NCBI GenBank assembly: GCA_015660855.1
Contig: JACSDG010000028.1
Location: 8,685-72,684 of the forward strand
DNA: 64,000 nucleotides
Reading direction: 5' to 3'
From: Magnetococcales bacterium
Lineage (GTDB): Bacteria; Pseudomonadota; Magnetococcia; Magnetococcales; UBA8363
Shown here: in pieces, positions 1 to 23,744 of the stretch
How the letters are laid out: each line of letters begins with the position of its first letter
Position numbering within the stretch: position 1 is the first letter of the stretch
Program-made: the position numbers and the translations under genes
Notes under the pieces: model-generated
The model's database searches: none
What the model was told of the DNA's origin: nothing
The model's input: only the letters and a program-made list of their open reading frames with translations

Positions 1-128
1 TCCGCCACCAACGCCGAACAGCCACTCAGGACCGCCAAAACGCTCTTGAAAACCACCATGAACACATTCATGGAAAAGGCGTACCACACCACCTGATACC
101 TGCATTCCGGACAATGGGGGAATTTCAT
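1..128 (-). CDS. mamB: MamB (magnetosome CDF-family iron transporter), first 42 codons only; the gene runs off the left edge
   Basis: Minus-strand ATG at 128..126 overlaps the mamQ stop (ATGA). Translation MKFPHCPECRYQVVWYAFSMNVFMVVFKSVLAVLSGCSALVA fits the MamB N-terminal pattern (MKF..C..C..VVW.AF...FK..L...SG..ALVAD). It sits directly after mamQ. Confidence 0.75.
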   Translation of the reverse strand, partial: MKFPHCPECRYQVVWYAFSMNVFMVVFKSVLAVLSGCSALVA

Positions 129-1048
129 GGAACCACTCCTTTGTCAAAGGCTGTTCCCCCGACCGTTCCAGAAACTTTTTCTGTCCCCGCCTCCGTTTTT
201 TGACCTCCGGCGGCCAGGGGTAGAAGACGTTGGAAAAGCGAAGAAGACAGGTTGGGCAACATCAGTCTGTCCACGTCAGACAGAGACTCAATGGCAAAAT
301 AGTCGTGACGCTTAAAACCGGTAATATTGGCCAGAACGTACCAGGGAAACGAAGTAATCAGGGTATTGAACACTCGGACATCCTCGTTGTAGGCATCTCT
401 CCGACTGATGATTCGGTCCTCGATCTCCACCAGTTTATCCATCAACTTCTGGTAGGTCGTAGAGGATTTAATTTCGGGATATTGTTCCACCACCGCCATG
501 AGCCTGGACAGGGATGCCACCCCTTCCATCCCCACCATGGCCTCGGCTAGGCCCGCACCCCCGACTCCAGAAGCACTCGCCTCGCCCCCCCCTTCCCGGC
601 TCACCTGGGCCCCAACCGGTGCCACAGCCTTATCGCCAGCCTGCTCCTGGCCTGTCATCGTCGCCCGAACATCGGCAACGTGCCGAAACACTTCCTGTTC
701 CAGTGCCGCCTGGTTGAGAGTCAGGTTGATCAGGTTGGTAAAAAGATTGGCCCGACGCTGCATGGTGTCTTCAACATGACCTTTGGCTGAAATAATTTTT
801 TCTTCGAGGGTGATGAAAATATTAAAATTGTACAGCGTTGTTACACCGAAAACAATGATGGAGGCAAAGGACAAAAACAGAACCAATCCTTTGATCTTGA
901 TGACAGAGATTCCCAGTCCCTTGTTTTCCACCTCTTGCCTGTGAAGCTGGCTCAGAAGCCGCTTCATACGGCGCATGCGCTCGGAATGGCTCGATTCCGG
1001 TCCCAGCCCGTCCAACTGTTCAAATGCGTTTTGCGGATGCTCGGCCAC
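125..1048 (-). CDS. mamQ: MamQ (LemA-family magnetosome membrane protein)
   Basis: N-terminal TM helix followed by a LemA core (TMQRRANLFTNLINLT; VEQYPEIKSSTTYQKLMDKLVEIEDRIISRRDAYNEDVRVFNT; FPWYVLA). Immediately upstream of mamB. The track start at 1048 is GTG; in-frame ATG alternatives lie at 976 and 967. Confidence 0.85.
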   Translation of the reverse strand: MAEHPQNAFEQLDGLGPESSHSERMRRMKRLLSQLHRQEVENKGLGISVIKIKGLVLFLSFASIIVFGVTTLYNFNIFITLEEKIISAKGHVEDTMQRRANLFTNLINLTLNQAALEQEVFRHVADVRATMTGQEQAGDKAVAPVGAQVSREGGGEASASGVGGAGLAEAMVGMEGVASLSRLMAVVEQYPEIKSSTTYQKLMDKLVEIEDRIISRRDAYNEDVRVFNTLITSFPWYVLANITGFKRHDYFAIESLSDVDRLMLPNLSSSLFQRLLPLAAGGQKTEAGTEKVSGTVGGTAFDKGVVP

Positions 1049-1132: not shown

Positions 1133-3943
1133 TCACTCCAGGGAGACAGGATATTTTTCCGCATCATCCCTGGCTTCGGCCACTTTCAAATGATGCACCG
1201 CTTCCTTGACCTGCCCCACCGATTGCAGAGAAAAACCCAAGGCACGCCGATACGCCCTGCGCCCAGGTTCCAGGACCACCGCTTCCTTGTAGGCTGAAAC
1301 GGCCTCATCCAGACGATCAATGCAACCAAGAACTTCCCCCAATCGAAACCACAAGGCGGCACGTTGCCCCGGCCGATCCGACCCGCGCTCCAACCCTTTG
1401 CGGATCAATCCTTCCGCCCAGACATACCGCCCGGAACCAATATAGGCCACGATCAAGTCGTCGTCCAGCCATGCCCCGCCCGACCCCTCCAGTTCCCGGG
1501 CTTTTTCCAAAAATCCCAATGCACGGTCAAAGGCTTCCTGTTTCAAATAACACCGCCCCATCCCGGCAAGGACAGCCACATTTTTCTCATCTTTATCCAA
1601 AACCTTGCGATAGCAGAATATCGCATCATAAATCATTCCCTGTTGGAAAAAACGGTGGCCCCGTTCGGTATAATAATGGGTTCGGACCGGCCCTCCCAAG
1701 GATACCAACCCCATGTACCTGTGCACCACCACCTCGGACAATCGACCCAACAACTTGAACACGGAATGCAACATAAAACGCCATTCTTCCAACACGGGAA
1801 CCCGGACAGATGGTCTGGAAGTCGCCACACCACGCGCCGGTTCAAGCACGTCCTCCTGCCCAACGCATCCCCTGCATTCAAACTGTTCGGGCAATCGTTC
1901 TTTTCCAGTTAAAACCGTTCTTTCCGGTTCTTCAACGATGTATCCCCCTTCCAACGATTCCCCCGAGACCGTTTCTCCTCCAACCCATTCCCCCTCTGTA
2001 CCGGGATCCCCTTCGACTTCAACACCATCCTCTCCCACCAACAGGGTCTCTGCAACGCGGTCCCCTTCCAGCAATCCTGCAGAAACCTCATCCCCCGCCA
2101 CCGGCACCAATTCGCAATGATTTCCTTCCTCCACATCCACTTCAAGGTCGTCATCCTGCGTCCGGGCATCCGCGAGTTGGGTTTCTTCGGGGTCAACGCG
2201 ATCCTCTTCCACCCGTTCTTCGACAACGCCCTCCCCTTCCACCAACTCTGCAAAAACCTCGTCCCCCGCCACCGGCTCCAATTCGTAATGATTTCCTTCC
2301 TCCACATCCACATCAAGGTCGTCATTCTGCGTCCGGGCATCCGCAAGTTGGGTTTCTATGGGGTCAACCTCATCCCAATTTTCACCGGCCCGATGAACAC
2401 CTTCCCAGGGATCTTCCTTCGCCGTGGACAGTTTCCAGGGAAACGGCAACGGCGGATCTGAACTCGCCGCACCGGGTACCAAACCCGGACCATCCACAAC
2501 ATCCTCGTCCATCATAGCTTGGCGATGGAGCCTGAAATCGTTCAAAAGGCGCGCCAGGGATTCTCTATGCTCAACCTCTGGGAGTTGAATCGCCAAACTC
2601 TCCGTCGACGCAGTATCCGCCATTTCCCGCAGCGCGGCTCCAACACCATCTCCCCCCGAGACCCCCTCTACTTGCAACGCCGCCGGGACTTCATCCCCTG
2701 TGTTGCTGACATCTTCACCGCCGTCCCCGACAATTTCCACCCCGGAAGGCCGTTCCGTCCACGCCCATTCCCCCGACGTCGGTCCCTGACGCACCGCCAA
2801 CCCCTGCAAAAAATGCCGGGCCGACTCCCCCACAGAAGTCGCCACAGGATTAAAACCTGTCGCCAAACCATTCACCCCCTGGCTTTTTTTTTCCGTCGCC
2901 TCGCCCTTCCGGCCACCACCACCCCGAAAGATTTCCACAGCTTCCATGTCATCCATGGAAGCGACGAACACCCCCTCCCCCACGCGAGTGGACGTTTTTT
3001 GCCCAATATTTCGATTTTTCCCAAAAGACTCCAGCAAACGGACCACATCCTGCCGATCCGGGGAAGAACTCCTGACAGCCAACGGCTGACTTTCCGCAAG
3101 CACGGATCGCCGCCCCTCCTCCCCATCATCGTGGACCAAAAGCCCGGTATCCCCCCCTGACAAAGAGTCGGAAACGGCACCCGGGATCATCCCTGAGAAA
3201 GACAGCGGGGCCTTTGATTGGCCCGATCCTTCACCCCCACCGTTTCGATCCGTTGAACCAACAGGAAATCGAGATGGCACCCTACCCTCCAACTCTTCCT
3301 CCTCCGAAAGGAAATCGGTCCCCTTGGCCCTTCCGCGCTGACGTGCCATGGCACTGAAAAGTTCCAACGGAGTCGGCTCGGCATGAAGATCCCGACGCCG
3401 GACAGGCAGTTCCAATGAATACACATCTTCATTGTCCGCACTCGCCCCCCCCCGTTCCTTTCCCCATCCCGAAACAGAAACCTCCGACGCCCCCACCTCC
3501 CGCACCGGATTGGCATGACCCCGGACAGGTCCAACGGCAAGGACAGGGGGTAATGCCCTAGATGCCAAAGGCAATTTCAATGACGCTTCTTCTTCATTCT
3601 CCGGGAGTGCCTCCGCCACCATCAACGATTGTGACGCCTCCTTGAGCCACTCTCCACGCAACTCCAAGCCTTCACCTTCACGGTCGGACTGGAAAAAATC
3701 TGCCTCTTTCTCCTTGATTGCCCATTCGGTCGAATCTTTTTCCCCCTCTGGCACCTCGGATACGAAACCATCCTCTTCGGTCAGGTCATCCCCGAAACCT
3801 TCCCCTCCGCTGCTTTCGCCCCTTGCAACAGCCTCGGCAAAAGACTGGCGTTTCATCATGGCACCACGAATCATGGAATCCATGCGGTCCATGCGGGCCT
3901 GCCAAAGACTTTCTTCCACATCGGAGTTCAAAGGTTGATCCAT
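1133..3943 (-). CDS. 936-aa acidic low-complexity protein with a C-terminal MamA-like TPR module (giant MamA paralogue)
   Basis: ATG start, long uninterrupted ORF in operon orientation. The C-terminal ~230 aa align with the MamA of this window. Compare FMLHSVFKLLGR...THYYTERGHRFFQQGMIYDAIFCYRKVLDKDEKNVAVLAGMGRCYLKQEAFDRALGFLEKARELEG with FFLHAALHVVKR...LHYYQERGIEYTRRGRYDAAATMLEKVLVEWPADEDTLFHLGFCYLKMDRTQEGIELLERAEALG. The N-terminal ~700 aa are E/D/G-rich and contain a 57-aa tandem repeat. Confidence 0.8.
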   Translation of the reverse strand: MDQPLNSDVEESLWQARMDRMDSMIRGAMMKRQSFAEAVARGESSGGEGFGDDLTEEDGFVSEVPEGEKDSTEWAIKEKEADFFQSDREGEGLELRGEWLKEASQSLMVAEALPENEEEASLKLPLASRALPPVLAVGPVRGHANPVREVGASEVSVSGWGKERGGASADNEDVYSLELPVRRRDLHAEPTPLELFSAMARQRGRAKGTDFLSEEEELEGRVPSRFPVGSTDRNGGGEGSGQSKAPLSFSGMIPGAVSDSLSGGDTGLLVHDDGEEGRRSVLAESQPLAVRSSSPDRQDVVRLLESFGKNRNIGQKTSTRVGEGVFVASMDDMEAVEIFRGGGGRKGEATEKKSQGVNGLATGFNPVATSVGESARHFLQGLAVRQGPTSGEWAWTERPSGVEIVGDGGEDVSNTGDEVPAALQVEGVSGGDGVGAALREMADTASTESLAIQLPEVEHRESLARLLNDFRLHRQAMMDEDVVDGPGLVPGAASSDPPLPFPWKLSTAKEDPWEGVHRAGENWDEVDPIETQLADARTQNDDLDVDVEEGNHYELEPVAGDEVFAELVEGEGVVEERVEEDRVDPEETQLADARTQDDDLEVDVEEGNHCELVPVAGDEVSAGLLEGDRVAETLLVGEDGVEVEGDPGTEGEWVGGETVSGESLEGGYIVEEPERTVLTGKERLPEQFECRGCVGQEDVLEPARGVATSRPSVRVPVLEEWRFMLHSVFKLLGRLSEVVVHRYMGLVSLGGPVRTHYYTERGHRFFQQGMIYDAIFCYRKVLDKDEKNVAVLAGMGRCYLKQEAFDRALGFLEKARELEGSGGAWLDDDLIVAYIGSGRYVWAEGLIRKGLERGSDRPGQRAALWFRLGEVLGCIDRLDEAVSAYKEAVVLEPGRRAYRRALGFSLQSVGQVKEAVHHLKVAEARDDAEKYPVSLE
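2055..2368 (-). repeat. 171-bp (57-codon) tandem duplication inside the giant MamA-like gene
   Basis: GTCAAC landmarks at 2192..2197 and 2363..2368 are exactly 171 bp apart. The encoded units are VDPIETQLADARTQNDDLDVDVEEGNHYELEPVAGDEVFAELVEGE and VDPEETQLADARTQDDDLEVDVEEGNHCELVPVAGDEVSAGLLEGD. Confidence 0.9.
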
Positions 3944-3994
3944 AAGGTCGCGGGTGGCATAAAGACTGGTGAATTTCGGAACATTATTCCCTTA

Positions 3995-4035
3995 GGGCGA
4001 AAACCAAAACATTGGGTGCTCTCGCCCCCAAGCCC
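3995..4035 (+). repeat. Nested-hairpin intergenic repeat (NH-REP), partial copy
   Basis: gggcgaaaaccaaaacattgggtgctctcgcccccaagccc matches the H1-linker-H2 part of the full copies at 5113, 8582 and 32047. Confidence 0.7.
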
Positions 4036-4171
4036 TCACTGCGATGAAGCTTTTTGTCCAAATTAAACTTTGGTATATCTGCGAAAAAATCTCCTTAATG
4101 CCAACGGTAAACCGCGAAAAATATGTAAAAACTTCGCTCTGTTGGGAAATTCAGGTTGGTAGAAATGGGGA

Positions 4172-5110
4172 CTATAGTTTCACGGCCCACGTAGTTATAA
4201 TGTCATGCAAATTTTTACGAATCCGTATCTTTCCCAGCCTGGAATGTTCAACCAACTTGAAACAATGATAAAACAATCCACGCTGCTTTCCCTCCGACAA
4301 ACGGAAAAATATTGTCTTTAGAAACAAGATATGGGAAATATATTTGTGGGAAAGCACAGAAAAACCACTTTCAACCAATGCGAAGTCAAGAGTTTTTTTA
4401 TTGAAGTAGGAAAGATGAACCGGCGGTACAATTGCATAATATTTCGAGCCGGTTATGCGAGCGTACAGGCATGAAATATTGTGAACTTTGACGACGATCA
4501 GCCCTCCAGGCTTCAGGAGGTCACGGCATTTTCTTAAGCTTGCCAAAGGGGCAGGCATGTGATCAAGCACATCCTGCAAGGTAATGACATCGAAAGTTTC
4601 ATTGGAAAAACCGGCATCTTCCAAATTTCCGTTAAAAACACGATCACCATACTTTATTTGTGCTTTTTGGGCAGCAACGGGTTCGAGTTCCACGCCATGG
4701 CATTGCCAACCGTGCATTACGTCCAGAAACTGTCCTTCGGAACATCCAACATCCAATAACTGTCCACCCGGTTTCATAGCCTGAATGATATCTCTCAATG
4801 ATTCATAATAATAGTTAAGATTTACCCGATTTTCCACCTCACCATAAACTTGGTCAGTCCCCTGTTGTTTGTAATACGTGGCCAACGCATCAGGAGACCA
4901 ATGTTCCCAGACAAACACGAACGAACAGGTTCGACATTGGACGATATGGTGGTCGTTGACCTTGAATTTTTTTTTTATATTCGTTGCACCACACAGATAA
5001 CAAGCTGGATGTAGAGAATGTTTTTGCGGCACAGGCTGCATAACAAATACGTCCCCTCGTATTGAGCACTTGGTTGGGCCAATCTGACCCTGATCTTGGT
5101 TCATGAACAT
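4172..5110 (-). CDS. Class I SAM-dependent methyltransferase with an N-terminal Zn-ribbon
   Basis: CYLCG...CRTCSF Cys4 ribbon, then SAM motif I LLDVGCSEGQFLD and the post-I acidic residue (HGVELEP). The start is moved to ATG 5110 (MFMNQDQ) because the 43 upstream codons of the track ORF (to 5239) are the translated NH-REP copy at 5113..5225. The gene is AT-rich. Confidence 0.7.
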   Translation of the reverse strand: MFMNQDQGQIGPTKCSIRGDVFVMQPVPQKHSLHPACYLCGATNIKKKFKVNDHHIVQCRTCSFVFVWEHWSPDALATYYKQQGTDQVYGEVENRVNLNYYYESLRDIIQAMKPGGQLLDVGCSEGQFLDVMHGWQCHGVELEPVAAQKAQIKYGDRVFNGNLEDAGFSNETFDVITLQDVLDHMPAPLASLRKCRDLLKPGGLIVVKVHNISCLYARITGSKYYAIVPPVHLSYFNKKTLDFALVESGFSVLSHKYISHILFLKTIFFRLSEGKQRGLFYHCFKLVEHSRLGKIRIRKNLHDIITTWAVKL

Positions 5111-5112
5111 GG

Positions 5113-5225
5113 TGCCCTGCGGGCAAAAACCAAAACCTTGGGGGCTCTGCCTCCAAACCTCCGCCGTGGGGGATGATCCCCCCGGACCTTCGCAATAATT
5201 CTGCCAAACTTTATTTTCCGATACA
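5113..5225 (+). repeat. NH-REP, full copy (H1 TGCCCtgcGGGCA, H2 TTGGGGGCtctGCCTCCAA, H3 GGGGGATGATCCCCC, A/T-rich tail)
   Basis: Near-identical to 8582..8698 and 32047..32161. Three consecutive short palindromes followed by gcaataattctgccaaactttattttccgata. Confidence 0.9.
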
Positions 5226-5305
5226 CGTAGCCTATGCAAGTGAATTCAAAAGGTTAAACATGACAAAGTAGAACGAGTCTCTCCACACTCCGATTGTCCT
5301 GTATT

Positions 5306-7804
5306 TCACCACCCACGTCTACTGAAATCTTTCAAATTTGGCCCCAAATGCTCCCCAAATTTTGACGGATGGCCCCATCGGAAGGAACAGCGGATGCTTT
5401 GTGTATAATGATGTAGTAGAAGAAGAATAACGCACGCCAGAGAAAACAGAGAAATCCACAAACCGATCCTAAAATAAAGTGGTTGGTAGTGAAATCTGAC
5501 GGAATGTTTCCCGGAGGGCAGGGAAATGGCGCGGAAATAGGCGTATGCCTGATAGATTGGGACAGGTATGCCATCCACGTAGGCGGTCCATCCCGGATCA
5601 TAAAGGTCGGAAAGAATAAGGATACGATTGTTGGTGTTTTGTGTTTTTATGAGAACCTCCCTAGGTGCGTAGGATTCTATGATGACCTTGTCCTTGGAGG
5701 TTTCAGGACCCAATTTCTCGGTCGAAGGGGTTTCCAGAAGGTAGACCGTTTTTTCCGGGACGAAATGTTCGCCTTTCATGACTGCAACAATGTCGGATTC
5801 GGAACCCAACTGCTGAAAACTCCCCACGGTGAAGGCCCGTGGGAGAACTTGGGGATTTTGATAAACCTTGAACTTGCCATCATGCACCATAGGGAACCGA
5901 TTCTGGTTCAACTCATTGGAATGAGTCAACAAATATTTCACATTGCCAAGACTGAGGAAACCGGGGTTTGCTGGTTGGTCCATCAGGGTGACCCGATTAT
6001 TCAATGCAGGTGGAAACTCGTACACTCCCGCTGTAGAATACCATCTAAAGTAGACATTTGTTACGTCTGGCATGATCCAAGGCATTCCGTCTATGGGCAC
6101 TATCGAGAAACGATCTGACAATAAATTTTCCTTTAAAAACTTGAAGGTTTCATCTTCTGGGGTGAAATTGTGCTCCTTCAAATCAATGACCGGAGCATAG
6201 GAATGGAAGAAAGTTCCCAGATCAAGGCATGTCAGTAAAACAATCCCGATACCGATGATTTTTACCGGAATTATTTTACGGTAATGCAAGAAAAGAATGA
6301 GGCCAAAAAAGAACACAATAAATATAGTTATTAATAGTTTCAGATTATCAAAATTGAAATAAGACAACGTGTTTGCGATCCTGAGCATGTTATAATCAGA
6401 CATGGGAAAAAGGCTTCCGCCTGTCGAGGCTTCGGCGTAGTGGGTGGCTATGGAAATGATTTCTGATCTATTCAAGTTGATAACGACGAAAATAGTGATC
6501 CAGGCTGTGACCAGCAAGAAACCGAGTTTAAACATCCACCGTGCAAATTTCAGGACGAACCCTTTGTTTTGAGGTTGCAGGAGGTAGTCTAGACCAGCCC
6601 CCCCCAGGAAGGCGATACAAAGTGTAAAAAACACGAGAAACCTTGCGTAGAGATACATCACAATTGGCGTCAAAAAAACTGTAAAAATTATTATGAATCC
6701 TGTATTTTTAAAATAATTAAACTTAGAGTTACTTGTCAGAGTGCCTGAACTTACCATAGCCAGAAGTAAAGGTATGAGTCCGGAATACCCAAAGACAAAG
6801 TCAGACCATTTACCACCAACGAGTGAAACTGGATTCAAGATACTGTGGTGACCAACAAAATGGGGTATGGCAAGAGACACCAGGAATGGAATTCGCAAAA
6901 TAGACTCAGGGAAATGATTAAGCCAGTTTGGGAAATCGAAAGAAACATGATTCGTAGTTCCTCGTATAAGAAGTTCAAAGAAAGTTATAAAACCTACAGC
7001 AGACAGTAATATACTTATTGTATAGGCACCAGAAAGATTGACAAAGATAACCCGTAATAATCTCCGGTCGCTTTTGTTTGAAAATAAGGTTCTTGAGAAC
7101 ATCCATAGAGTGAGGAAGAATCCGATCTGTAGTATGTTTTGGGCATTGCCAGCCAAGTGAGAAAAAGCCAGAAACAAACCTGTTGCTGCGATGTTGACAA
7201 CTCGGGATTTTTCGTGCAGGCTTTTTTCGAGGTAAAGGATGATGAATGGAACCCATAGAATTGAGCCTAAGGCCCAATAAAAAGAGTGCAGAGCGAAAAA
7301 TGAACCGTTGAACATAAAGGCGATACCACCAAGCGTTGCTCCCATGGAGGAAATTCCGAAATATCTCATGAGAATGAACATACCTATACCCGCTGTCCAT
7401 AGTTCAACTGCAGCGATGACAACATCCATATACATATCGGCTGAGAGAAGATAAAAAACGTAAAATACATCAAGAAAAACGGGAATTGCGAACGAAATAT
7501 TTGGTGTCCCGAAGTTATTGTATGGATTCCAGATGGGAAGTTCAAAATTGGAGATGCTTTCGGCAATAAAACGCTGCCATGGAAACATTTGCCGAACAAG
7601 ATCCCAACTATAATGATATTGGACAGGCACAAACTGGCCATCACCCCAGGGGAGTGACCATTTCAGCAAGTCAAACGGGACGTAGGTTTTTCCAAAGAAG
7701 AGATAAGGGGATAAAAATAAAATAATGATCAGTGCAAAAAAGATTCCCGAGGCAAAAAAAAACTGTTTGACCTGTTCATAAGTTCGACCTTGTCGCGATA
7801 CCAA
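5306..7804 (-). CDS. YfhO-family polytopic membrane protein (GT-C type glycosyltransferase-like)
   Basis: 832 aa with many TM segments. N-terminal loop motif SWDLVRQMFPWQRFIAESISNFELPIWNPYNNFGTP. C-terminal extracytoplasmic block PGWTAYVDGIPVPIYQAYAYFRAISLPSGKHSVRFHYQP followed by a terminal TM helix, as in YfhO family members. The only start available is TTG 7804, with no clear SD. Very AT-rich. Confidence 0.72.
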   Translation of the reverse strand: MVSRQGRTYEQVKQFFFASGIFFALIIILFLSPYLFFGKTYVPFDLLKWSLPWGDGQFVPVQYHYSWDLVRQMFPWQRFIAESISNFELPIWNPYNNFGTPNISFAIPVFLDVFYVFYLLSADMYMDVVIAAVELWTAGIGMFILMRYFGISSMGATLGGIAFMFNGSFFALHSFYWALGSILWVPFIILYLEKSLHEKSRVVNIAATGLFLAFSHLAGNAQNILQIGFFLTLWMFSRTLFSNKSDRRLLRVIFVNLSGAYTISILLSAVGFITFFELLIRGTTNHVSFDFPNWLNHFPESILRIPFLVSLAIPHFVGHHSILNPVSLVGGKWSDFVFGYSGLIPLLLAMVSSGTLTSNSKFNYFKNTGFIIIFTVFLTPIVMYLYARFLVFFTLCIAFLGGAGLDYLLQPQNKGFVLKFARWMFKLGFLLVTAWITIFVVINLNRSEIISIATHYAEASTGGSLFPMSDYNMLRIANTLSYFNFDNLKLLITIFIVFFFGLILFLHYRKIIPVKIIGIGIVLLTCLDLGTFFHSYAPVIDLKEHNFTPEDETFKFLKENLLSDRFSIVPIDGMPWIMPDVTNVYFRWYSTAGVYEFPPALNNRVTLMDQPANPGFLSLGNVKYLLTHSNELNQNRFPMVHDGKFKVYQNPQVLPRAFTVGSFQQLGSESDIVAVMKGEHFVPEKTVYLLETPSTEKLGPETSKDKVIIESYAPREVLIKTQNTNNRILILSDLYDPGWTAYVDGIPVPIYQAYAYFRAISLPSGKHSVRFHYQPLYFRIGLWISLFSLACVILLLLHHYTQSIRCSFRWGHPSKFGEHLGPNLKDFSRRGW

Positions 7805-7818
7805 AAAATATTGGACTT

Positions 7819-8547
7819 TTAGGCTTTATTAAACACTCTAATCTTGAAAATTTTCCACAAAGAATAAATGACGGGTAAAACATTTTTTAACTTAAGGATG
7901 GCACTTTCTTCCCGCCCCCGCGCCTCGCTTGAATGCTCTCGCACCGGAATATGGACGTGTACATAGCTCAAACCCCTGCGGAGTAAGTGGCAGAGAACCT
8001 CGCATTGAAATGCCGGACTAGAATAGTATGCAGGCGCGGTGCATACATGTTTCCGAGGAAATAAAATAATGCCATTGTAATATAAAACTTTATTACTGCT
8101 GATAATATTGACGGTTGCTGTGAACAATCTTGAAATAAATACGCGACTGCGAGATCTTGGGTCCAAGTCACCACTGTGATGGGAAATAACAATATCCTTC
8201 TCGTAACGCCTCTCCAGAATATCGCGAATTCCTTTAGCCATCACCACGTTGTCTCCGGGAACGTAAATGATCCATTGACCTCGCCCCAAGAGAGCCGCAA
8301 GGAGAAAAGAAAAACCAACCCCACGGTTTATTCCGTTCCGCAAAACCATTATGTCGGTATTGCGACGAGTGCGTTTGGTCTTGAGAAGGTTCTCGTAGGT
8401 TCCGTCCGAGGAACCATCGTCAACGGCGACGATCTCGTAAGAAACCAAATCGGTACACGCGGCGCAAATCGTCTCTACTGTATCGGCTGCATGTTTTTCC
8501 TCATTCATACATGGAACAAAAAAAGTTATCTCAGGGCAGGTATCCAC
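7819..8547 (-). CDS. Family 2 glycosyltransferase (polyprenyl-phosphate sugar synthase-like, DPM1/CsbB-like catalytic domain)
   Basis: ITFFVPCMNEEKH...YEIVAVDDGSSDGT...YVPGDNV are GT2 (GT-A fold, DxD-like) signatures. GTG start at 8547 preceded by AGGGA. No obvious C-terminal TM helices. Confidence 0.78.
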   Translation of the reverse strand: MDTCPEITFFVPCMNEEKHAADTVETICAACTDLVSYEIVAVDDGSSDGTYENLLKTKRTRRNTDIMVLRNGINRGVGFSFLLAALLGRGQWIIYVPGDNVVMAKGIRDILERRYEKDIVISHHSGDLDPRSRSRVFISRLFTATVNIISSNKVLYYNGIILFPRKHVCTAPAYYSSPAFQCEVLCHLLRRGLSYVHVHIPVREHSSEARGREESAILKLKNVLPVIYSLWKIFKIRVFNKA

Positions 8548-8581: not shown

Positions 8582-8698
8582 TGCCCTTCGGGCAAAAATC
8601 AAAACCTTAGAGGCTCCGCCTCCAAACCGCAGCACGGGGAGGATAATCCCCCCCTTAACCCCCGCAATTTTTTTTTCCAAACTTTATTTTTCCGAAAC
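8582..8698 (+). repeat. NH-REP, full copy
   Basis: tgcccttcgggcaaaaatcaaaaccttagaggctccgcctccaaacc...ggataatccccccc...cgcaatttttttttccaaactttatttttccga. It ends 2 nt before the mamA stop codon. Confidence 0.9.
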
Positions 8699-8699: not shown

Positions 8700-9362
8700 T
8701 CAAAAAGAAGACCGCCCCTCATCCAGACTCGCCGCCTTTTTAAACTGCGCCACCGACTCTTCATGCCGCCCCATCTGCTCCAGCGTGAACCCCAGAGAAC
8801 GATAAACCTTGGGTTCGTCCGGGCGAACCCCAATCGCCTTCTTAAAGTAGGACACCGCCCGATCATACTGTTCCAAGTTATCCAACCCCAAAGCCATACG
8901 ATAGTTAAGATGAAAATTTTGCGGATCTTCCTCAAGGGCTTTTTCCAATACGGCTACCGCCTTGGCATATTCCTTGGTTTGCAGAAAGGCCATCCCCAGG
9001 ATGGATCGAACCCGGATGCCACCGCGCCCCAGTGCCTCAGCCCGTTCCAAAAGCTCAATACCCTCCTGGGTACGATCCATTTTCAGATAACAAAAACCCA
9101 GATGAAACAAGGTATCCTCATCCGCCGGCCATTCCACGAGAACCTTTTCCAACATGGTAGCGGCGGCATCGTAGCGACCACGCCGGGTATACTCTATCCC
9201 CCGCTCCTGGTAATAGTGCAGCCGCAATTCGGAATCCACCACAAAAAACCGATTGTAGCTTTCGGTGGCTGAGATAAAAGCCCGCTTGACCACATGCAAG
9301 GCGGCATGGAGAAAAAATCCGACATCGGACATTGGATTTGGGCTGCGGTGCTCGGGTCTCAT
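8700..9362 (-). CDS. mamA: MamA (TPR magnetosome-associated protein)
   Basis: Five TPR-like repeats. The C-terminus KKAIGVRPDEPKVYRSLGFTLEQMGRHEESVAQFKKAASLDEG closely follows the conserved MamA C-terminus (...YEQMGRHEEALPHFKKANELDEG). ATG preceded by AAGGGA. Confidence 0.9.
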   Translation of the reverse strand: MRPEHRSPNPMSDVGFFLHAALHVVKRAFISATESYNRFFVVDSELRLHYYQERGIEYTRRGRYDAAATMLEKVLVEWPADEDTLFHLGFCYLKMDRTQEGIELLERAEALGRGGIRVRSILGMAFLQTKEYAKAVAVLEKALEEDPQNFHLNYRMALGLDNLEQYDRAVSYFKKAIGVRPDEPKVYRSLGFTLEQMGRHEESVAQFKKAASLDEGRSSF

Positions 9363-9396: not shown

Positions 9397-9449
9397 AAAA
9401 AACCGGGGGTTTTGCCCCCAAACCTCCACCGAGGAGGATGATCCCCCCG
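9397..9449 (+). repeat. NH-REP, partial copy (H2 variant + degenerate H3)
   Basis: aaaaaaccgggggttttgcccccaaacctccaccgaggaggatgatccccccg, in the mamP-mamA intergenic space. Confidence 0.7.
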
Positions 9450-9487: not shown

Positions 9488-10279
9488 TCAAGGAACGATC
9501 TTATGACAGGCCACGCACGGGCCACGATCCTGATGCGGTCTGCCAACCCCCACCCGGATGGTTGGCGGCGGGAGAATAATGCCATCGGGATCGGGAACAA
9601 GATGTCCGGTCACACCGATGGCATGACAATCGGTACACGGTCCCCGGTAAGGATGCGGCCTTATGTCGCCCGGCAAAACCATGGGGGCGGTTTCCACCTG
9701 GGTAAAGCCCAGATTTTCGCCCGGCATCGATACCAACTTAAAACTCATCCAAGCCCCGTTCCGATAGACCATGAGCATGGCACTCTTGCGATTCTGCACC
9801 TTCCGGCTTTCCCGATACATGTCTTCCAGACTCAAAACCGGACGATTGTTGATCGCAACCAAGACATCCCCAGCCAAAAGACCCGCCCGAGCCGATTGCA
9901 AACTGACCTCATCGATCAGAACGCCTTCGACGTTCATCGGATAATTCAATTTTTTCTTGAGTTCTGTCGTCAGGGGTAACGTTTCCATCCCCTGCCAATG
10001 GGCCTCAGATTTTTTTATTTTTGCGGAAACAAACTCCGGTAACGCTGCCACAGGCGGAACCTTAACGACCGTTTCCGGGGTTGCAAACGAGAGGGGAGGC
10101 TGGCCCATCATGGCCACATTGACCGCCACAGGAAGCGACGTACCCCCGCTAGGCAACCTGTCTGCCTGTGGCTCCCCCAACCGGAGGGCATCGTCGGAAT
10201 GGCCAAACAGCCCGACGATAATGATAACCACGGTACCCAGAATACCAGCGGTTACTACCCCCTGTCCGACCCCTTTCAT
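9488..10279 (-). CDS. mamP: MamP (PDZ + two magnetochrome c-type haem domains)
   Basis: TM anchor, a PDZ-like segment, and two CXXCH motifs in magnetochrome context ([13 protein letters not shown] and [14 protein letters not shown]). The start is set to ATG 10279, which overlaps the mamO stop (ATGA). The track ORF extends to 10366. Confidence 0.85.
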
Positions 10280-12189
10280 GACAAAATCATTCGCGCAGAA
10301 ATAAAAAACATCAAAAATGCATACATCCAGCGCAAGGTGTTCAGCGGAGCCACCGTCGTCAACCATGCGCCAATAAAACCACCAAGATAAGCCCCTGGGG
10401 TCAGGATGATCGCCAAAATCAACGGTGTGGCCACGGTAAAGGCACCACTGGTCACCCCATGGATCATGGCCACCAACGATCCCACAATGGATGCAAAGAA
10501 AACCAATACGGCACTGTTGGCAATGGCTCGACGTAGCGGAGCGCGCAGAATGTAGCGCTGCAAAGGAACCTCGATGACGCCTCCCGTTATGCCGAGAATG
10601 CCACTGATCATCCCCATGGGCAACCCCAGCAACCCGTGGGCCAGAGTGGCGTTCCCCACCAGGGACGAAGGATAGGGCCCCGTTGGCTCACTGGCACCAA
10701 TGATGCGCTGCAAATCACCCAGCAAACCCTTACGTTCCCTTGATTCGGAAATTTCCACCAACATTTTTATGGAAAGAAAAAAGGCAAAAATCCCCAGGAG
10801 GAGGCGAATAACCGATGCGTTCAGAACGTTGCCGACAAAATAGCCCAGCACCACCCCCACCATGGCCCACGGTACCATGGGTTGGATATCCGACCAGCGA
10901 TAGACGTTGTCCCGACGGTAGCGCAGGGACGCCCCTCCATACATGAAAATGTTGGTGATATAGGCCACAGGCCGCACCAGCAACAGCCCATAACCAAACA
11001 CCGACATCAAACCGATAACCTTGATGATGCCACCCCCCATGGTCATCATGCCACCACATAATCCAGAAAAAAATCCCAACAACAACAAACCCAGAAAAGT
11101 AGGGACGGGAAACCCGAGAATACGCTGCGTCGTCGCGTGACTCTGGCCCCCACCGGCGTTAATGTCCGGCATCCCTTGATACGCGGGCAACTGATGCCCC
11201 AATTGCGCTTCCAGCATGGCCTTGGCCCGGTTCCACCAATCGTCGGCCCTTCGGGGGGGACGTTCAATTCCCGGAGTGGATGGCTGCGGCACGGCCATGG
11301 CTACCGGAACCGACTGGGGCACAATACCTGCCCCCGGTTGTTGATTGATCTGGACCTGGGGAGGAAAATCCACCACATCCTGAAAATGCGTCACGATAAC
11401 GTGCGAAGGGAGGGCATAACCCAAAAACAGGTTACCCGGGGCCTGAATCAACAAATTGATTCCCAACAGACGGCCCTTATCATCCACCAAAGGCCCCCCC
11501 ACCATGGCCCAATGGTTGACCGCGCTGGTGGTCAAAAGGTGGGTCAACTCGGTGGAACCCACCCGAACCGGACTTCTGGAAACCTCCGCATCGACAATCC
11601 CGACGTTACGCAAAACCGACGAACCGTCCGGGTCACCCCAGGCCACCACCGGAGTGCCGGCCAGCAACTGCCGCGAATCTCCCGGCAATAAATAAGGAAA
11701 AATATCCTTGGAGACTATTTTCACCAACGCCAGATCGTGTTGGGCCACCGACTTGACCAACTGACCCGAATATTGCCTGGGGCCCATCGGCGTCTGCACG
11801 CGAATAAAAATTTCCTTCAGCCCAGCCAGGAGGTGGTTTGCCGTCATCACATGGCCATTGGCAGTAATCACCACCCCCGACCCCACCGAAACAAACTTAT
11901 TCTTTCCCCCCGTGTCCGCCACGGTCCCAGCAATGTTCACCAAGGCCGCCCGCACCATGGTGTCAACGGGATCATAACTCGCCGCCGCCGGCAGAGCCGC
12001 CACCTGGACCGTGGGAACGCCGGCATTCGACAACGCCGCCAAGGATCTCAGCTCATCCCGATGTTCCTTGATGAGATGAAACCCCCAGGCAAAAGTACCG
12101 AGAACCAGCAAGGTCAAAATGATGGCCGGGGTGTACCAATGTTGCCGGCAAAAAGGCGGAGAAATGGATCTCTTTGCGGATTTGGCCAC
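10276..12189 (-). CDS. mamO: MamO (degenerate trypsin-like domain + TauE/SafE-like membrane domain)
   Basis: The protease-fold half has His (MTANHLL) and Asp (HDLALVKI), but the GNSGGP serine box reads AMVGGP, so there is no nucleophile. The C-terminal half is a polytopic TauE-like domain. GTG start preceded by GGGAG. Confidence 0.85.
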
Positions 12190-12313: not shown

Positions 12314-13276
12314 TCATTCACCCTCATTGCCCTCCTTGGACTGGGACAAACCCAAGGCTGCTAAACTTTGCTGCCGCAGTTTGGCAAACGGTTCCTCGCT
12401 GTCCTTGTGGGAACGAAACTGCACACCCACATCGCCCACATGGGGAATGGATGTGACCAGGGCTTCCTCAACCCGCATGGCCAAAGCCTTGGCCTTAACC
12501 AACGTCAGCTCCGGATCAACTCCGATAATCAAGGTAATCCACAATTCCTGGCCCACCTGGCGGGTGCGAACCTCTCCCACATCCTGAACCCCCTGAATCT
12601 GCAACGCCTCCTTGCGAATACGCTCCACCACTTTCTTTGGTGCCGCCGTATCCATAAGACCGCTGAAGGCATTCCAGAATATTTCCCCCGACAGATAAAT
12701 CAAATGCACGCTTTCCAACATGGCGACGGCGGTATCCAACCAGGGCATCCCCAGATAATGGGATCCCACAATGCCCACAGCCACGGCCATCGAAGAATAT
12801 CCGTCGGTCAGGTGATGCTTGGACAACAACTTCACCACCGGCGAATTGATCTCGTGGCTGACGCAATGGGTATAGCGGTGCATGAACCAGTTGACCCCAA
12901 CCGACAGCAACGCCGTCCACAAAGCGATCAGGTGCGGCGCGTTATGATTGCCGTCCAGTAGGTTGCCCGCAGAAAAATAAAACAACAGCCCCGTCACAAT
13001 CAGCAACACAAGGCTTATTGCAAGGGAAAGCAAAAACTCCACCTTGCCATGACCAAAGGGGTGTTCCTGATCCAACGGCTTCCTGGAAACTTTAAGACCG
13101 ACGATGATAACAGACGAGGTAACCACATCTTTGGCCGAATACAAACCATCGGCCACCAGGGCGTGCGAACCAGAAAAGGTTCCGATAAACAGCTTGAGCA
13201 CCGACAGAACCAAGTTGGTTGCGAGCCCAATCCAGCCGACCCCCTCGTAACAGACGACGCACTTGGAATATCTCAT
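12314..13276 (-). CDS. mamM: MamM (magnetosome CDF-family transporter)
   Basis: MRYSKCVVCYEGVGWIGLA...ALVADGLYSAKDV...PLDQEHPFGHGKVEFLLSL...GVDPELT follows MamM closely (MRKSGCAVCSRSIGWVGLA...DAEHPYGHGKVEF...GVDPEHT). Confidence 0.88.
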   Translation of the reverse strand: MRYSKCVVCYEGVGWIGLATNLVLSVLKLFIGTFSGSHALVADGLYSAKDVVTSSVIIVGLKVSRKPLDQEHPFGHGKVEFLLSLAISLVLLIVTGLLFYFSAGNLLDGNHNAPHLIALWTALLSVGVNWFMHRYTHCVSHEINSPVVKLLSKHHLTDGYSSMAVAVGIVGSHYLGMPWLDTAVAMLESVHLIYLSGEIFWNAFSGLMDTAAPKKVVERIRKEALQIQGVQDVGEVRTRQVGQELWITLIIGVDPELTLVKAKALAMRVEEALVTSIPHVGDVGVQFRSHKDSEEPFAKLRQQSLAALGLSQSKEGNEGE

Positions 13277-13316: not shown

Positions 13317-13449
13317 TGCCCTGCGGGCAAAAACAACAACCTTGGGCGCTCTCGCCCCCAAACCCCCATAGGCAATAAAGCTTTTTTGTTTTAATTCAAA
13401 AACAAAACCTTGGGGCGCTGCCCCAAACCCCGCCGGGGGGGATGATCCC
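13317..13449 (+). repeat. NH-REP, composite copy (H1, H2 variant, AT-rich spacer, second H2 variant, H3)
   Basis: Reverse-complement match to the composite copy at 49787..49953, including the spacer ccataggcaataaagcttttttgttttaattcaaaaac. It overlaps the last ~19 codons of mamL. Confidence 0.85.
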
Positions 13450-14197: not shown

Positions 14198-15235
14198 TCA
14201 CTCCCCAATGACATCACCCACCTGTGTCCAATAGTCCGGTGGCAGTTCGGTCGCCAATTTCAGTGCCCCGGCAGCACCGGCATAGTCCGGCTCGTCCACC
14301 TTGAAAACATGAACCTCGCCAAAAGATTTCAAACCATCCTTCAACACCTGATCCAAACCCCGTATGGCCGACCCGCCCCCCGCCAAAATAATATTTTTCA
14401 CCGCATCCGCCTGATCCTCGGGATCAAAAACACTGACCAACTGTTCCAGACTTTCCAAAATGTCCGGGACAACGGTTTCACAGGCAAAGCGAACTTCCCG
14501 TCCGATGTCATAGTTTCTGGGCTTGCCACCAGAACGCAACTCCACCATCGCCACCTCCTGCGGTCCAGGACCCACATGGCTGAAACGCTCCTTGAGCTTT
14601 TTCGCCAACAGGTTGGTCATCTGTACCTCAGGGTGAGCCTCGGTAATGGCCGCCGCCAGGATGTCATCGATGTAGCTGCCCGCCTTGAGAAGCGTCACCT
14701 GCTCCTCCGGCAAGGGAATGGTCCCCTTCATGGCACACAAATCGGTCGTCCCAGCCCCAATGTCGATGATGATGGCGTTAGTCAGACGGTTGAGACCATA
14801 AGCCACCATGAAAGGTTCGGAAACCACCATGGAAAGATCCATCACCTCATCGGCAATCTTCAACAATTGCCCCTTGTTGGTCACCGAAGCCCGCGCCGGC
14901 ACCCCAAGAATGCCACAAATGCGATCACCCGGAGCGGGAGACACCAAACCAATGGCATGCTTCAACAATTCCCGCGCCGCCTGGGTATTTTGCTCCCCCG
15001 TTTCTTTAAGGACACCATCTTCCAGGGGAAAATGCAGATCCATATAGGATTTTTTAGCCAGAGCCTCGTCCCCCACCGCAAAAGTGCGATTGAGGAGCTT
15101 GACCCCGAGAATATCCTTGGGATAACCAACAACCGAACGCACCAACCCCTTGCCACCCCGGCTGGACATGATCGTCGTGCGAGAAGTTCCCAGATCAATA
15201 CCCAGAAACAGCGTTTTATCCATTTCCTGAATCAT
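14198..15235 (-). CDS. mamK: MamK (actin-like magnetosome filament protein)
   Basis: Actin/MreB ATPase motifs (LGIDLGTSRT; IIIDIGAGTTD; IILAGGGSAIRGL), about 345 aa, located after mamE. Confidence 0.92.
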   Translation of the reverse strand: MIQEMDKTLFLGIDLGTSRTTIMSSRGGKGLVRSVVGYPKDILGVKLLNRTFAVGDEALAKKSYMDLHFPLEDGVLKETGEQNTQAARELLKHAIGLVSPAPGDRICGILGVPARASVTNKGQLLKIADEVMDLSMVVSEPFMVAYGLNRLTNAIIIDIGAGTTDLCAMKGTIPLPEEQVTLLKAGSYIDDILAAAITEAHPEVQMTNLLAKKLKERFSHVGPGPQEVAMVELRSGGKPRNYDIGREVRFACETVVPDILESLEQLVSVFDPEDQADAVKNIILAGGGSAIRGLDQVLKDGLKSFGEVHVFKVDEPDYAGAAGALKLATELPPDYWTQVGDVIGE

Positions 15236-15276
15236 CTTGATCGACTCCCCTGATAAACTTCCACCAATCGATGGAG

Positions 15277-17538
15277 CTATTGCAATGTGGCAAACATGCG
15301 TTGATTCATACGTTCAATCTCCACCAACACACCCGTGCGAACCTTGACCGCCTTAATGGCATTGTCCAACGCGGTTGCCGAAGGAACCGGCAAACCGTTG
15401 ATTGCTACAACCAAATCACCGCGCCTAATCCCGGCCCTCTCTGCCTGCGCCCCCACATCCACATCGGCCACCAACCCGCCAAACTTGCCCCGAAGATCGG
15501 GATTGCGCTGCCATGCCGCCTGATCCATAGGAACCATTTCCATCCCCATCCATTCAAATTCGGTGGGAGGAGCGGCTGGCTTTGCCTGACCAGGAACCCC
15601 GGGCGGGTTACCCTGAGGCGGAAAATTTTGTCCGGGGACCGCAAACTGGCCCTGTTCCGCCGCCAGCATCGGATCTATCCCATTCTGCCCCCCTGAAATT
15701 TGCGGCTGCGTCATGGGCTGCTGCATCATGGGAGACGGCCCCGCCACGGGCAACCATGTCGCCGAAGAGGGCTGCCCACCAACGTTGCGCCGGGCTGTAT
15801 CCAGTTCCATCCGCACCCCACCCCGATGCACCAGAAAACGGACCGCATCGCCACGTTGCAAACGATCAAAGGACTCCTGAACCTGGCCCATCGTCTTGAG
15901 CCAACGCCCATCGACCTTGAGCAACACATCATTCGCCCTGAAACCCAAAGATTCCCCAGACATTCCCGGATGCACGGTATCGATCACCGCACCGAAGGGA
16001 ACCGGCACCTGCAACCCTTCGGATCGAGCGGCATCCAGCATGCTCCAGGTAACTCCCAGACCAGCATCGCCGGCAGCCGCGACGGAATCCGCCATACCTG
16101 CCGCTGCCACGGTCACCCCTATGGCACCACCCGGAGAAAAGGAAAACTGCTGCATGGCGTCAAAATTGCCCTCATCGGCCTTCCCCATTCCCAGACCCGG
16201 TTTTTGGTGCAAACCAGGACCAGGACCCACCCCAAAAGCGATCGGCTGGGGGGAAGGTATGATCTGGTGACAGTTCACGCACGGCCCCCAATCATCGTGG
16301 GGCAGCGCAGCATCGGCCTGGATGGGAGGTCCCTTGGTTTGCGGAGCGGCAGCATTGGTAAAAGCCACCGGTTGCGGGCCGGGAAGAATGTCATGACAGT
16401 TGGCGCAAGGACCGCGATCACCGTGGGGGGGCTTGGCGTTGGCCTGGATGGGGGGAGGCGGACGGACGGCGACATGCGCACCCGCCGCTTGGCCAGGCAT
16501 GGGCAGATCGGGACGAACGTTCGGCAGCGTGATCCAGTCTTCGAGAAAATCCCGGGCGGTGTTGATGGGAACCGCAAAGCCGACGCCAGAAAAAGCACTG
16601 GTGGTGGTATAAATGGCGGTGTTGACACCAATCACCCACCCCTGTCCATCCACCAGGGGACCGCCGGAATTGCCACGATTGATGGCGGCATCGGTTTGCA
16701 ACAAACCTTTGTGCAGCACCCCACCAATATTAACCACCTTGCGTTTGCCAGCCACAATCCCCTTGCTGACCGAATGGTTGAGTCCAAACGGCGAGCCAAT
16801 GGTGATGACCGAATCACCGATCTGGGCGTTTTCACTGTTACCCAGGGCTGCGGATTTAAGTTTTCCCGCAGGTTCAATCAGGAGGAGTGCCAAGTCGCGG
16901 GTATTGTCACGAGCCACCACATCGGCGTGATAACTTTTATCCCCCATTTCGCCGTAGACCATGACAACAACATTTTTGGAATTTTCAACCACATGGAAAT
17001 TGGTAAGAATATGGCCTTCCTCGGTGACGATGATGCCGGAACCGATGCTTTCCTGGGAGACGCCGCTGAAAGGATTGGCGAATTGCAGACCACCGGGAGA
17101 CGGCGTTTGTCCCGCCTGAGGCAATTCGGGCCCGACGGCGGGACCAGTCGCCTGGGCCTGGAGCGGAGAGTCGTTGTGGGCACTGATGTTGACAACGCTG
17201 GGCATCATGGATTTCACGACGGCGGCAAACCCCCATGGACGGTTCAACAGGCTGGGGTCGGCAGCGAGGGGATCGTTTTGTTGCGTGGCCATGGCTGCCG
17301 CCATGGCCTGGGGTTGCAGAGGGGCGACACCGGGGGCATTGGACGCCGGATTGGGAACCCGCACGGAATTAACGCCACCCTGGACGTAGCCCAGGCGACC
17401 GTCAGCACTCTTGCCATAGTATTCGGAATACCAGTAGCCACCGACCATGATGGCCACGGCAAGCGCGACAATGAAGTAGAGGTATTTGTGATACTCTTTA
17501 CCGCAGAATTTGTCGGATCCGTTTGACTTGGAGGCCAT
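15277..17538 (-). CDS. mamE: MamE (HtrA-type serine protease with magnetochrome and PDZ domains)
   Basis: Intact triad context (TNFHVV, RDLALLLI, GNSGGPLVD), two magnetochrome CXXCH motifs (GDRGPCANCHD, DDWGPCVNCHQ) and two PDZ-like regions. The start is 6 nt after the mamI stop. Confidence 0.9.
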   Translation of the reverse strand: MASKSNGSDKFCGKEYHKYLYFIVALAVAIMVGGYWYSEYYGKSADGRLGYVQGGVNSVRVPNPASNAPGVAPLQPQAMAAAMATQQNDPLAADPSLLNRPWGFAAVVKSMMPSVVNISAHNDSPLQAQATGPAVGPELPQAGQTPSPGGLQFANPFSGVSQESIGSGIIVTEEGHILTNFHVVENSKNVVVMVYGEMGDKSYHADVVARDNTRDLALLLIEPAGKLKSAALGNSENAQIGDSVITIGSPFGLNHSVSKGIVAGKRKVVNIGGVLHKGLLQTDAAINRGNSGGPLVDGQGWVIGVNTAIYTTTSAFSGVGFAVPINTARDFLEDWITLPNVRPDLPMPGQAAGAHVAVRPPPPIQANAKPPHGDRGPCANCHDILPGPQPVAFTNAAAPQTKGPPIQADAALPHDDWGPCVNCHQIIPSPQPIAFGVGPGPGLHQKPGLGMGKADEGNFDAMQQFSFSPGGAIGVTVAAAGMADSVAAAGDAGLGVTWSMLDAARSEGLQVPVPFGAVIDTVHPGMSGESLGFRANDVLLKVDGRWLKTMGQVQESFDRLQRGDAVRFLVHRGGVRMELDTARRNVGGQPSSATWLPVAGPSPMMQQPMTQPQISGGQNGIDPMLAAEQGQFAVPGQNFPPQGNPPGVPGQAKPAAPPTEFEWMGMEMVPMDQAAWQRNPDLRGKFGGLVADVDVGAQAERAGIRRGDLVVAINGLPVPSATALDNAIKAVKVRTGVLVEIERMNQRMFATLQ

Positions 17539-17544: not shown

Positions 17545-17775
17545 CTACTCGTCCCCTGAAACCGTATTTCTGCCGAGTTCCTCGGCCAAGCCCACATCAT
17601 CCCGGGTTCCCTCATCACGCACCCGGGTGATACCGGCTCCCAAGGCGATGAAACCGAGAATGACAAGCAGCAAAGGGACGACGCCGCGCAACATTTCCAC
17701 CACAGACCACCACCAGACGGAGAGGCCCCAAAGGCCGAGAGCGAGGGCAACCAGCCCGAAAATTATGTTGGCCAT
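17545..17775 (-). CDS. mamI: MamI (small two-TM magnetosome protein)
   Basis: MANIIFGLVALALGLWGLSVWWWSVVEMLRGVVPLLLVILGFIALGAG carries the GLWGL..WWW signature typical of MamI. 76 aa, between mamH and mamE. Confidence 0.78.
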   Translation of the reverse strand: MANIIFGLVALALGLWGLSVWWWSVVEMLRGVVPLLLVILGFIALGAGITRVRDEGTRDDVGLAEELGRNTVSGDE

Positions 17776-19268: not shown

Positions 19269-19330
19269 GCGCCAGAGTCGGCTGAAGCTGATTGTCCCAT
19301 GACACCGGAATGGATACAAAGGGGAAAAAC

Positions 19331-19939: not shown

Positions 19940-19961
19940 CCCCTATCTGGAGAATGTGTTC

Positions 19962-22346: not shown

Positions 22347-23744
<1,398 letters not shown>

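Follow-up and report, generated by a model that had tools for sequence, protein, structure and literature searches.

We analyzed a 64,000-nucleotide stretch of contig JACSDG010000028.1 (positions 8,685 to 72,684; assembly GCA_015660855.1) of a Magnetococcales bacterium, hereafter called the window, which includes an operon of magnetosome (mam) genes. The longest open reading frame (ORF) of the region, located on the minus strand at 1133..3943, is unbroken, starts with ATG, and encodes 936 amino acids. Judging from sequence comparisons, its product is a paralogue of the magnetosome protein MamA, composed of a long N-terminal arm and a C-terminal MamA-like module of tetratricopeptide repeats (TPR), and is not MamA itself, since its score against the MamA family model is far under the cut-off of 200 bits and a genuine MamA has its gene 5 kb from this one. 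The division of the whole ORF into arm and module is based on the ORF list, BLASTP, composition, an alignment of orthologues, and AlphaFold2 (AF2) modelling. With slightly better than even confidence, we propose that the protein is a cytoplasmic scaffold of the magnetosome surface which would dock into the MamA coat, the arm acting as a tether or spacer that organizes or spaces the magnetosomes of a chain.

C-Terminal MamA-Like Module

A pre-TPR helix, which corresponds in order to the helix at the MamA N-terminus, was recognized at residues 717–747 (EEWRFMLHSVFKLLGRLSEVVVHRYMG; 1703..1795, minus strand) with BLASTP, NCBIfam, and AF2. It is followed by a five-TPR MamA-like module at residues 752–930 (1154..1690, minus strand), supported by Pfam TPR models, a phmmer search of PDB, NCBIfam, AF2, and Foldseek. 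In BLASTP, residues 710–927 were aligned with residues 2–215 of the MamA encoded in the window (29% identity, 47% positives, E value of 9e-21), and this alignment takes in the pre-TPR helix and all five TPRs. The preliminary description of the region, made from the sequence alone, had rightly pointed to the similarity with MamA but had let it extend only through the first TPRs.

In the phmmer search of PDB, MamA (3as4, E value of 3e-13) was the best natural protein, with only designed consensus TPR proteins above it. The best NCBIfam family was also MamA (NF040959; 80.2 bits, E value of 1e-22), while the next family reached 25 bits; model positions 2–199 of 204 were matched by residues 720–922. 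Neither Pfam nor NCBIfam scans of the 936-residue protein gave any match outside residues 720–930. AF2 predicted the helix at residues 717–747 and then ten TPR helices at residues 752–930, with a predicted local distance difference test score (pLDDT) of about 90. When the AF2 model was searched with Foldseek, the top nine matches were MamA chains (3as5, 3ash, 3asg, 3asf, 3as8, 3vtx, and 3vty first, 4xi0 and 5lfl later) with target template-modelling scores of 0.76–0.91. The five-TPR hook fold of the MamA crystal structures is reproduced by the predicted structure of the module.

MamA (Mam22; NF040959; 3AS4/3AS5, 3VTX, 4XI0) is thus the best match of the paralogue by sequence and by predicted fold; the C-terminal ~220 residues of the paralogue are collinear with full-length MamA, and both genes belong to the mamAB operon. 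The two proteins differ in length (936 versus ~200–220 residues), in the acidic disordered arm of 715 residues, which only the paralogue possesses, and in their standing with the equivalog model, whose cut-off the paralogue fails (80.2 versus 200 bits).

N-Terminal Arm

The first ~715 residues have a calculated isoelectric point (pI) of 4.3 and a net charge of −88 and are mostly predicted to be disordered. For residues 1–700, the pI was 4.26, the net charge −90, the content of D+E 21.9%, and that of G 12.3%, in agreement with the acidic, glycine-rich character ascribed earlier to this region. The highest 19-residue hydropathy window of the arm reached only 1.1, so that the 936-residue protein is predicted to have neither a transmembrane (TM) segment nor a signal peptide.

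Alignment A1, comprising five orthologues with 33–37% identity to the window protein, was used to identify conserved positions and as input for the AF2 model. With only five sequences behind it, the model had a mean pLDDT of 45.7, a value dominated by the arm, and 644 residues had a pLDDT below 50. Within the arm, helices were predicted at residues 7–40 (pLDDT of about 88), 192–206, 297–312, and 456–479, the same places as the islands conserved in A1. The best conserved part of the arm is the N-terminal helix (residues 7–40; 3824..3925, minus strand), with the motif EEsLWqARMdRMDSMIrGAMMKRQ at residues 10–33 and invariant M18, R20–D22, M24, I25, and M29–R32. The other islands, all on the minus strand and likewise defined by A1 and AF2, are island 2 (residues 177–206, LPVRRRDlhAEPTPLELFsAM at 177–204, predicted helix 192–206; 3326..3415), island 3 (residues 286–312, QPLAVR..DR..V.RLLeSFG at 286–311, predicted helix 297–312; 3008..3088), and island 4 (residues 456–492, RLLnDFRlhRQaMM...PGLvPGA at 460–492, predicted helix 456–479; 2468..2578). 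A further short motif, LPExF, is conserved at residues 684–688; outside the islands, the sequence of the arm is variable in A1. The arm had been described as having no recognizable domain, which is correct with respect to Pfam and NCBIfam; it is not featureless, though, given its four conserved helical islands. The N-terminal helix was also considered as a membrane-binding amphipathic helix, and this candidate was dropped because its hydrophobic moment was only about 0.3–0.35.

The most acidic and hypervariable stretch of the arm, with a D+E content of about 33%, was delimited at residues 520–680 (1904..2386, minus strand) by composition, A1, and Tandem Repeats Finder (TRF). It contains the sole TRF repeat of the ORF (2053–2368, residues 526–631), which consists of 1.8 copies of a 171-nucleotide unit with 90% matches; this is the 57-residue tandem repeat of the preliminary description, and its unit begins with ETQLADARTQ. 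Orthologues have other repeats at the same place, of the type EITGIEVLEDAEAFG in protein P0004 and of the type PVVTCADPLPxDEIEEISVV in protein P0153.

Integrity and Coding Status of the Gene

The fusion of arm and module is genuine and no assembly artefact, since an independent contig crosses the junction and the orthologues are each a single ORF. This contig, a separate 1.4-kb NCBI record retrieved by an exhaustive HMMER scan, encodes a 443-residue fragment (P0001) that is 100% identical to residues 441–883. Contig L001, from an ENA metagenome, matches the window at 99.99% identity and spans the upstream genes and residues 1–323 of the ORF, and the full 936-residue protein is already contained in NCBI nr, on a 73.2-kb contig. 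A fusion peculiar to this assembly, which the preliminary description had entertained, therefore does not agree with the data. The same description had considered that only a short C-terminal product might be made from an internal start; A1 shows no conserved internal methionine where the module begins, so such a product is not a feature of the family. A third doubt raised there, that profile searches might give no significant match to MamA or TPR models, was not borne out either.

The G+C content of the ORF (0.51–0.60) resembles that of the mam genes, and its values for the three codon positions (0.69/0.45/0.58) hold for each third of the ORF and are similar to those of the surrounding mam genes. 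The ratio of nonsynonymous to synonymous substitution rates (dN/dS), calculated according to Nei and Gojobori for two independent pairs of close loci, was 0.53 (L004/L005) and 0.39 (L002/L003) in the arm and 0.18 and 0.33, respectively, in the TPR module. As these values are below 1 in both segments, arm and module are both protein-coding and subject to purifying selection, the arm less strongly than the module. Long ORFs of the plus strand within the gene (e.g., 1810–2517 and 2519–3160) were rejected as by-products of the skewed composition, the minus frame being the one conserved in the orthologues. A scan for promoters and terminators around the gene gave results no better than those for shuffled sequence.

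Distribution of the Family

Homologues were found by the exhaustive HMMER scan. Four clear orthologues of the window protein were retrieved, namely P0002 (992 residues, E value of 2e-101), P0003/P0153 (791/808 residues), P0004 (1013 residues), and P0006 (1031 residues), with E values of 1e-59 to 1e-101 and the TPR module at the C-terminus in each. A pattern scan over one genome per GTDB species yielded five loci, all from metagenome-assembled genomes (MAGs) of Magnetococcales (nWRX3bin6, DCbin2, HA3dbin1, nWRX3bin12, and nHA5abin3). In all five, N-terminal motif and TPR module are joined by a single unbroken ORF, and wherever the contig reaches far enough, the gene lies in the order mamO-mamP-mamA-gene-mamQ-mamB. 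Altogether, seven Magnetococcales MAG loci have a single unbroken gene with this architecture, arranged as mamP-mamA-gene-mamQ. Word-prefiltered protein searches with the full protein, the module, and profile A2 returned nothing or generic TPR proteins, the prefilter being saturated at 8000 candidates, and scans of metagenome contigs with the A1 and A3 patterns revealed no true orthologue, only generic TPR proteins. In the HMMER and GTDB pattern scans, the family has been met so far only in Magnetococcales, which bears out the lineage specificity considered earlier.

NCBI lists orthologues under the name 'tetratricopeptide repeat protein' (MBF0139421.1, MBF0422596.1, MBF0602890.1/HAT51426.1). 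These Magnetococcales proteins have 33–44% identity to the window protein and share with it the N-terminal motif, the four islands, the acidic repeat region, the module, and the slot between mamA and mamQ; they differ in their tandem repeats and in the absence of the gene cassette that, in the window genome, separates mamA from the gene. Acidity is kept across the clade to which the window protein belongs, with net charges of −51 to −107.

A second clade comprises P0132 (879 residues), P0149 (809 residues), and P0112 (458 residues, possibly truncated because of its 2.4-kb contig). P0149 (MBF0453956.1), from a Magnetococcales MAG, is encoded in locus L007 between mamA and mamQ and is, by virtue of this slot, a positional orthologue. 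Proteins of the second clade share with the window protein the C-terminal module and a long disordered arm but differ in that the module is nearer to MamA (35–40% identity to Magnetococcales MamA versus 20–30% for the window clade) and in that the arm is proline-rich and basic or mildly acidic (pI 9.3 in P0132 and 5.2 in P0149). Magnetococcales MamA orthologues are 45–83% identical among themselves. The N-terminal motif, EExxW..R[ML].R.D..[ML]...[VT]M, is the only arm element recurring between the clades and was the top match in many of the pairwise arm comparisons (BLASTP E values of 0.3–3 each); beyond it, arm-versus-arm BLASTP between the clades gave no recurrent match, and islands 2–4 were not detectably conserved. 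Family-wide features are thus the mamA/mamQ slot, the MamA-like module, and a long extended arm; the N-terminal helix is probably also family-wide, and strong acidity is confined to the window clade. The gene probably arose by tandem duplication of mamA, of which the MamA of the window represents the presumed source; this MamA is also the presumed docking partner.

According to Koziaeva et al. (2019), a 'mamA-like' gene within the mamAB cluster is missing from the UR-1 family (PMC6783814), which by implication places such a gene in other Magnetococcales. The order mamP, mamA, HP, mamQ was given for MC-1 (M. marinus) and IT-1 (M. australis) by Morillo et al. (2014) (PMC3934378). We found no paper in the open-access literature that analyzes the architecture of the protein or proposes a function for it. 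The gene is therefore already present in databases and on published maps, and what is new here is its anatomy and the functional hypothesis.

Genomic Context

The gene order of the region is that of the mamAB operon of magnetotactic cocci. All of the following genes are encoded on the minus strand and were assigned with Pfam/NCBIfam unless a score is given: mamH (17843–19123; NCBIfam, 642 bits), mamI (17545–17775), mamE (15277–17538), mamK (14198–15235), small mamF-like and mamL-like ORFs listed between mamK and mamM, mamM (12314–13276; NCBIfam, 411 bits), mamO (10276–12189), mamP (9488–10366; NCBIfam, 280.6 bits against a cut-off of 300), and the bona fide mamA (8700..9362), which encodes 220 residues and scores 213.2 bits with NCBIfam, above the cut-off of 200. 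Next to the 936-residue ORF on its downstream side lies mamQ of the LemA family (125..1048; Pfam LemA; NCBIfam MamQ, 248.6 bits with the cut-off at 250). As MamQ (narrowly) and MamP fall below their NCBIfam cut-offs, automatic annotation in this lineage may name both generically.

Between mamA and the 936-residue gene, and co-directional with the operon, a cassette (4172..8547, minus strand) encodes three proteins identified with Pfam, all of low G+C content: a family 2 glycosyltransferase (7819–8547), a YfhO-like membrane protein of 832 residues (5306–7804), and an S-adenosylmethionine-dependent methyltransferase (4172–5239). Its G+C content is 0.39–0.49, and at third codon positions 0.45–0.47 versus 0.58–0.67, so that the host-like composition of the 936-residue gene, unlike that of its neighboring cassette, was correctly noted in the preliminary description. 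In the window, the order on the same strand is mamA, cassette, gene, mamQ; in loci L002–L007, it is directly mamA, gene, mamQ. Because the same interval lacks it in these six other Magnetococcales loci, the cassette looks like a recent foreign insertion that is not ancestral to the locus.

An intergenic repeat of ~50–115 nucleotides, resembling repetitive extragenic palindromic sequences or miniature inverted-repeat transposable elements, is represented by at least 10 copies, distributed over both orientations and some with a terminator-like hairpin (3987–4057, 5101–5240, 8582–8652, 9413–9449, 13317–13352, 13398–13449, 20334–20403, 21596–21639, 32047–32162, 49811–49868, and 49902–49956). Its copies flank the cassette and also lie just upstream of the 936-residue gene. 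The one indel that distinguishes contig L001 from the window (61 bp, 13449/13450) falls at such a copy.

In the window, mamE directly adjoins mamK, with no gene between them (15236–15276), and mamJ is missing from its canonical place, as had been stated before. In Magnetospirillum, mamJ is flanked by mamE and mamK. The suggestion that the 936-residue gene sits where a MamJ-type function might be expected was accordingly mistaken, its place being between mamA and mamQ. The mamE/mamK slot of locus L007 holds a gene for 265 residues without a Pfam match (792–1589), and this slot is the literature position of maq1 and of an MC-1/IT-1 'HP'.

Other Features of the Window

Near mamH, and divergent from it, two plus-strand ORFs had no NCBIfam match. 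One (19292–19939) encodes a protein of 215 residues, rich in Ala, Gly, and Lys, that looks Mms6/MamD-like and has a GL-repeat TM segment at the C-terminus together with an acidic tail (…IYSYIKNKKKYINELDDALS); the other (19851–20294) encodes 147 residues and looks MmsF/MamF-like. On the upstream border of the magnetosome gene cluster, a minus-strand ORF of 320 residues (20332–21294) with one N-terminal TM segment had no match in Pfam or NCBIfam; a short (TTTTGACTTTGA)n microsatellite (20406–20433) overlaps the 3' end of this ORF. Outside the cluster, genes for a NorB-like heme-copper oxidase, NorQ (CbbQ_C/AAA_5), and a von Willebrand factor A-domain (NorD-like) protein were found on the plus strand (22365–27373), and a gene for a NotI-like restriction endonuclease adjoins that of a C-5 cytosine DNA methyltransferase on the minus strand (28408–30697). 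Further tandem repeats comprise a 293-nucleotide unit in 2.0 copies with 88% matches (30900–31485) and arrays of 54 and 33 nucleotides (52099–52905), partly within a minus-strand ORF (52062–52550).

Possible Function

The MamA of Magnetospirillum coats magnetosomes on their cytoplasmic side and reportedly self-assembles by means of its N-terminal segment. Since the paralogue retains both the pre-TPR segment and the five-TPR hook, co-assembly with MamA is the simplest model: the module together with the pre-TPR helix would enter the oligomeric MamA coat that covers the cytoplasmic side of the magnetosome membrane, and the charged arm, serving as a flexible tether or spacer, would reach tens of nanometers into the cytoplasm. 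The conserved helices, the N-terminal one above all, would bind a partner. The MamK filament is the leading candidate, because mamJ and mamY are absent from Magnetococcales, where the link to MamK is unexplained (PMC6783814, PMC9840458); alternatively, the partner may be a TPR groove on a neighboring magnetosome. The result would be the organization or spacing of magnetosomes in the chain, a MamJ-like job performed by a protein unrelated to MamJ.

Such a MamJ-like role, and with it the adaptor idea of the preliminary description, is plausible by analogy. Like MamJ, the paralogue is acidic (pI 4.3), repetitive (57 residues × 1.8), largely disordered, predicted to be cytoplasmic, and encoded in mamAB, which is a resemblance and no sign of homology; MamJ differs in having no TPR module and in the position of its gene between mamE and mamK. 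No relationship to MamJ emerged at the sequence level: Pfam and NCBIfam scans gave only TPR and MamA families. NCBIfam includes many Mam models, the presence of a MamJ model among them being unchecked, and no direct comparison with MamJ sequences was made. MamJ is restricted to Magnetospirillum (PMC9840458).

In a stronger form of this idea, the family would be a functional replacement for MamJ in cocci, the module residing in the MamA coat and the N-terminal helix capturing MamK, and its absence from the UR-1/FCR-1 family and DMHC-6, through gene loss, would be a cause of dispersed or partial chains; we regard this version as doubtful. Magnetosomes are dispersed in the UR-1 family (PMC6783814) and unchained in FCR-1, for which mamA is listed directly before mamQ (PMC11950176). 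In the DMHC-6 locus (L008), mamQ (from 8810) follows mamA (up to 8666) without an intervening gene, and the chains of this strain are twisted or partial (PMC9840458). MC-1 and IT-1, which have the 'HP' at this position, are single-chain strains. Absence of the gene thus tracks dispersed or partial chains in the few genomes checked, which is suggestive but thin.

Several points weigh against a scaffold that docks into the MamA coat. The score of the module is below the MamA equivalog cut-off (80.2 versus 200 bits) and the module of the window clade is only 20–30% identical to Magnetococcales MamA; given this low score and identity, the ability to co-assemble with MamA may have been lost. The 4.4-kb foreign cassette parts the gene from mamA and could alter its expression and the read-through of the operon. 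The N-terminal helix is weakly amphipathic (hydrophobic moment of about 0.3). The 'HP' between mamA and mamQ of MC-1 and IT-1 is likely but not certain to belong to the family, gene order being the evidence for it, and the pattern of chain phenotypes comes from a handful of genomes without correction for kinship.

The arm might instead be an electrostatic or entropic spacer, a polymer brush anchored by the module that, without any specific partner, keeps magnetosomes or parallel chains apart and resists magnetic clumping. About 640 residues predicted to be disordered and a net charge of −88 are in line with this, as is the rapid evolution of the most acidic stretch by lineage-specific tandem duplication, expected if bulk properties outweigh sequence. 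The arms of the second clade, proline-rich and hence extended yet not strongly acidic, indicate that length and extension are the shared features. We nevertheless consider a pure spacer unlikely: four helical islands with invariant residues are kept at 33–37% overall identity and the second clade again shows the N-terminal motif, and this conservation of the islands favors specific binding sites over bulk properties alone. Less likely still is that the protein modulates or caps the MamA coat, its module entering MamA oligomers to limit or shape their assembly or client recruitment and its arm serving regulation or recruitment and not chains. The retained pre-TPR helix and five-TPR hook, the position of the gene immediately beside mamA in all orthologous loci, and the faster divergence of the module (20–30% identity, versus 45–83% among MamA orthologues) are compatible with such a role, which leaves the very long arm and its conserved distal helix unexplained.

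A buffer for iron or other cations, or an acidic matrix protein facing the mineral, in which carboxylate-rich repeats would serve to bind Fe or the surface of magnetite, seems highly improbable to us. Acidic proteins such as Mms6 bind iron, the content of D+E rises to 33% in residues 521–700, and Mms6-like and mmsF-like genes are present in the same cluster. Yet the protein has no predicted signal peptide or TM segment, and MamA-type modules are cytoplasmic, which puts the lumen out of reach; nor is the acidity shared by the second clade, encoded at this same locus, whose arms have pI values of 5.2 and 9.3. The mineral-facing role put forward in the preliminary description is unlikely on these grounds. 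That the gene is a decaying duplicate without function or an artefactual fusion is hardly credible, despite its low NCBIfam MamA score, its low-complexity composition, and the foreign cassette inserted beside it: seven loci have the ORF intact, arm and module both show a dN/dS below 1, independent contigs cross the junction, and the motif islands are conserved.

As a scaffold and tether of the magnetosome surface, the protein would bear on an open question. Magnetococcales are the most abundant magnetotactic bacteria, and how their magnetosomes are tied to MamK and arranged in chains is not settled (PMC6783814, PMC9840458). The gene offers a concrete and testable candidate for chain organization within the core mamAB operon, with a docking module of the MamA type and an arm bearing conserved candidate binding helices. 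The family would also illustrate how a coat protein may become a tether through duplication and the gain of a disordered arm.

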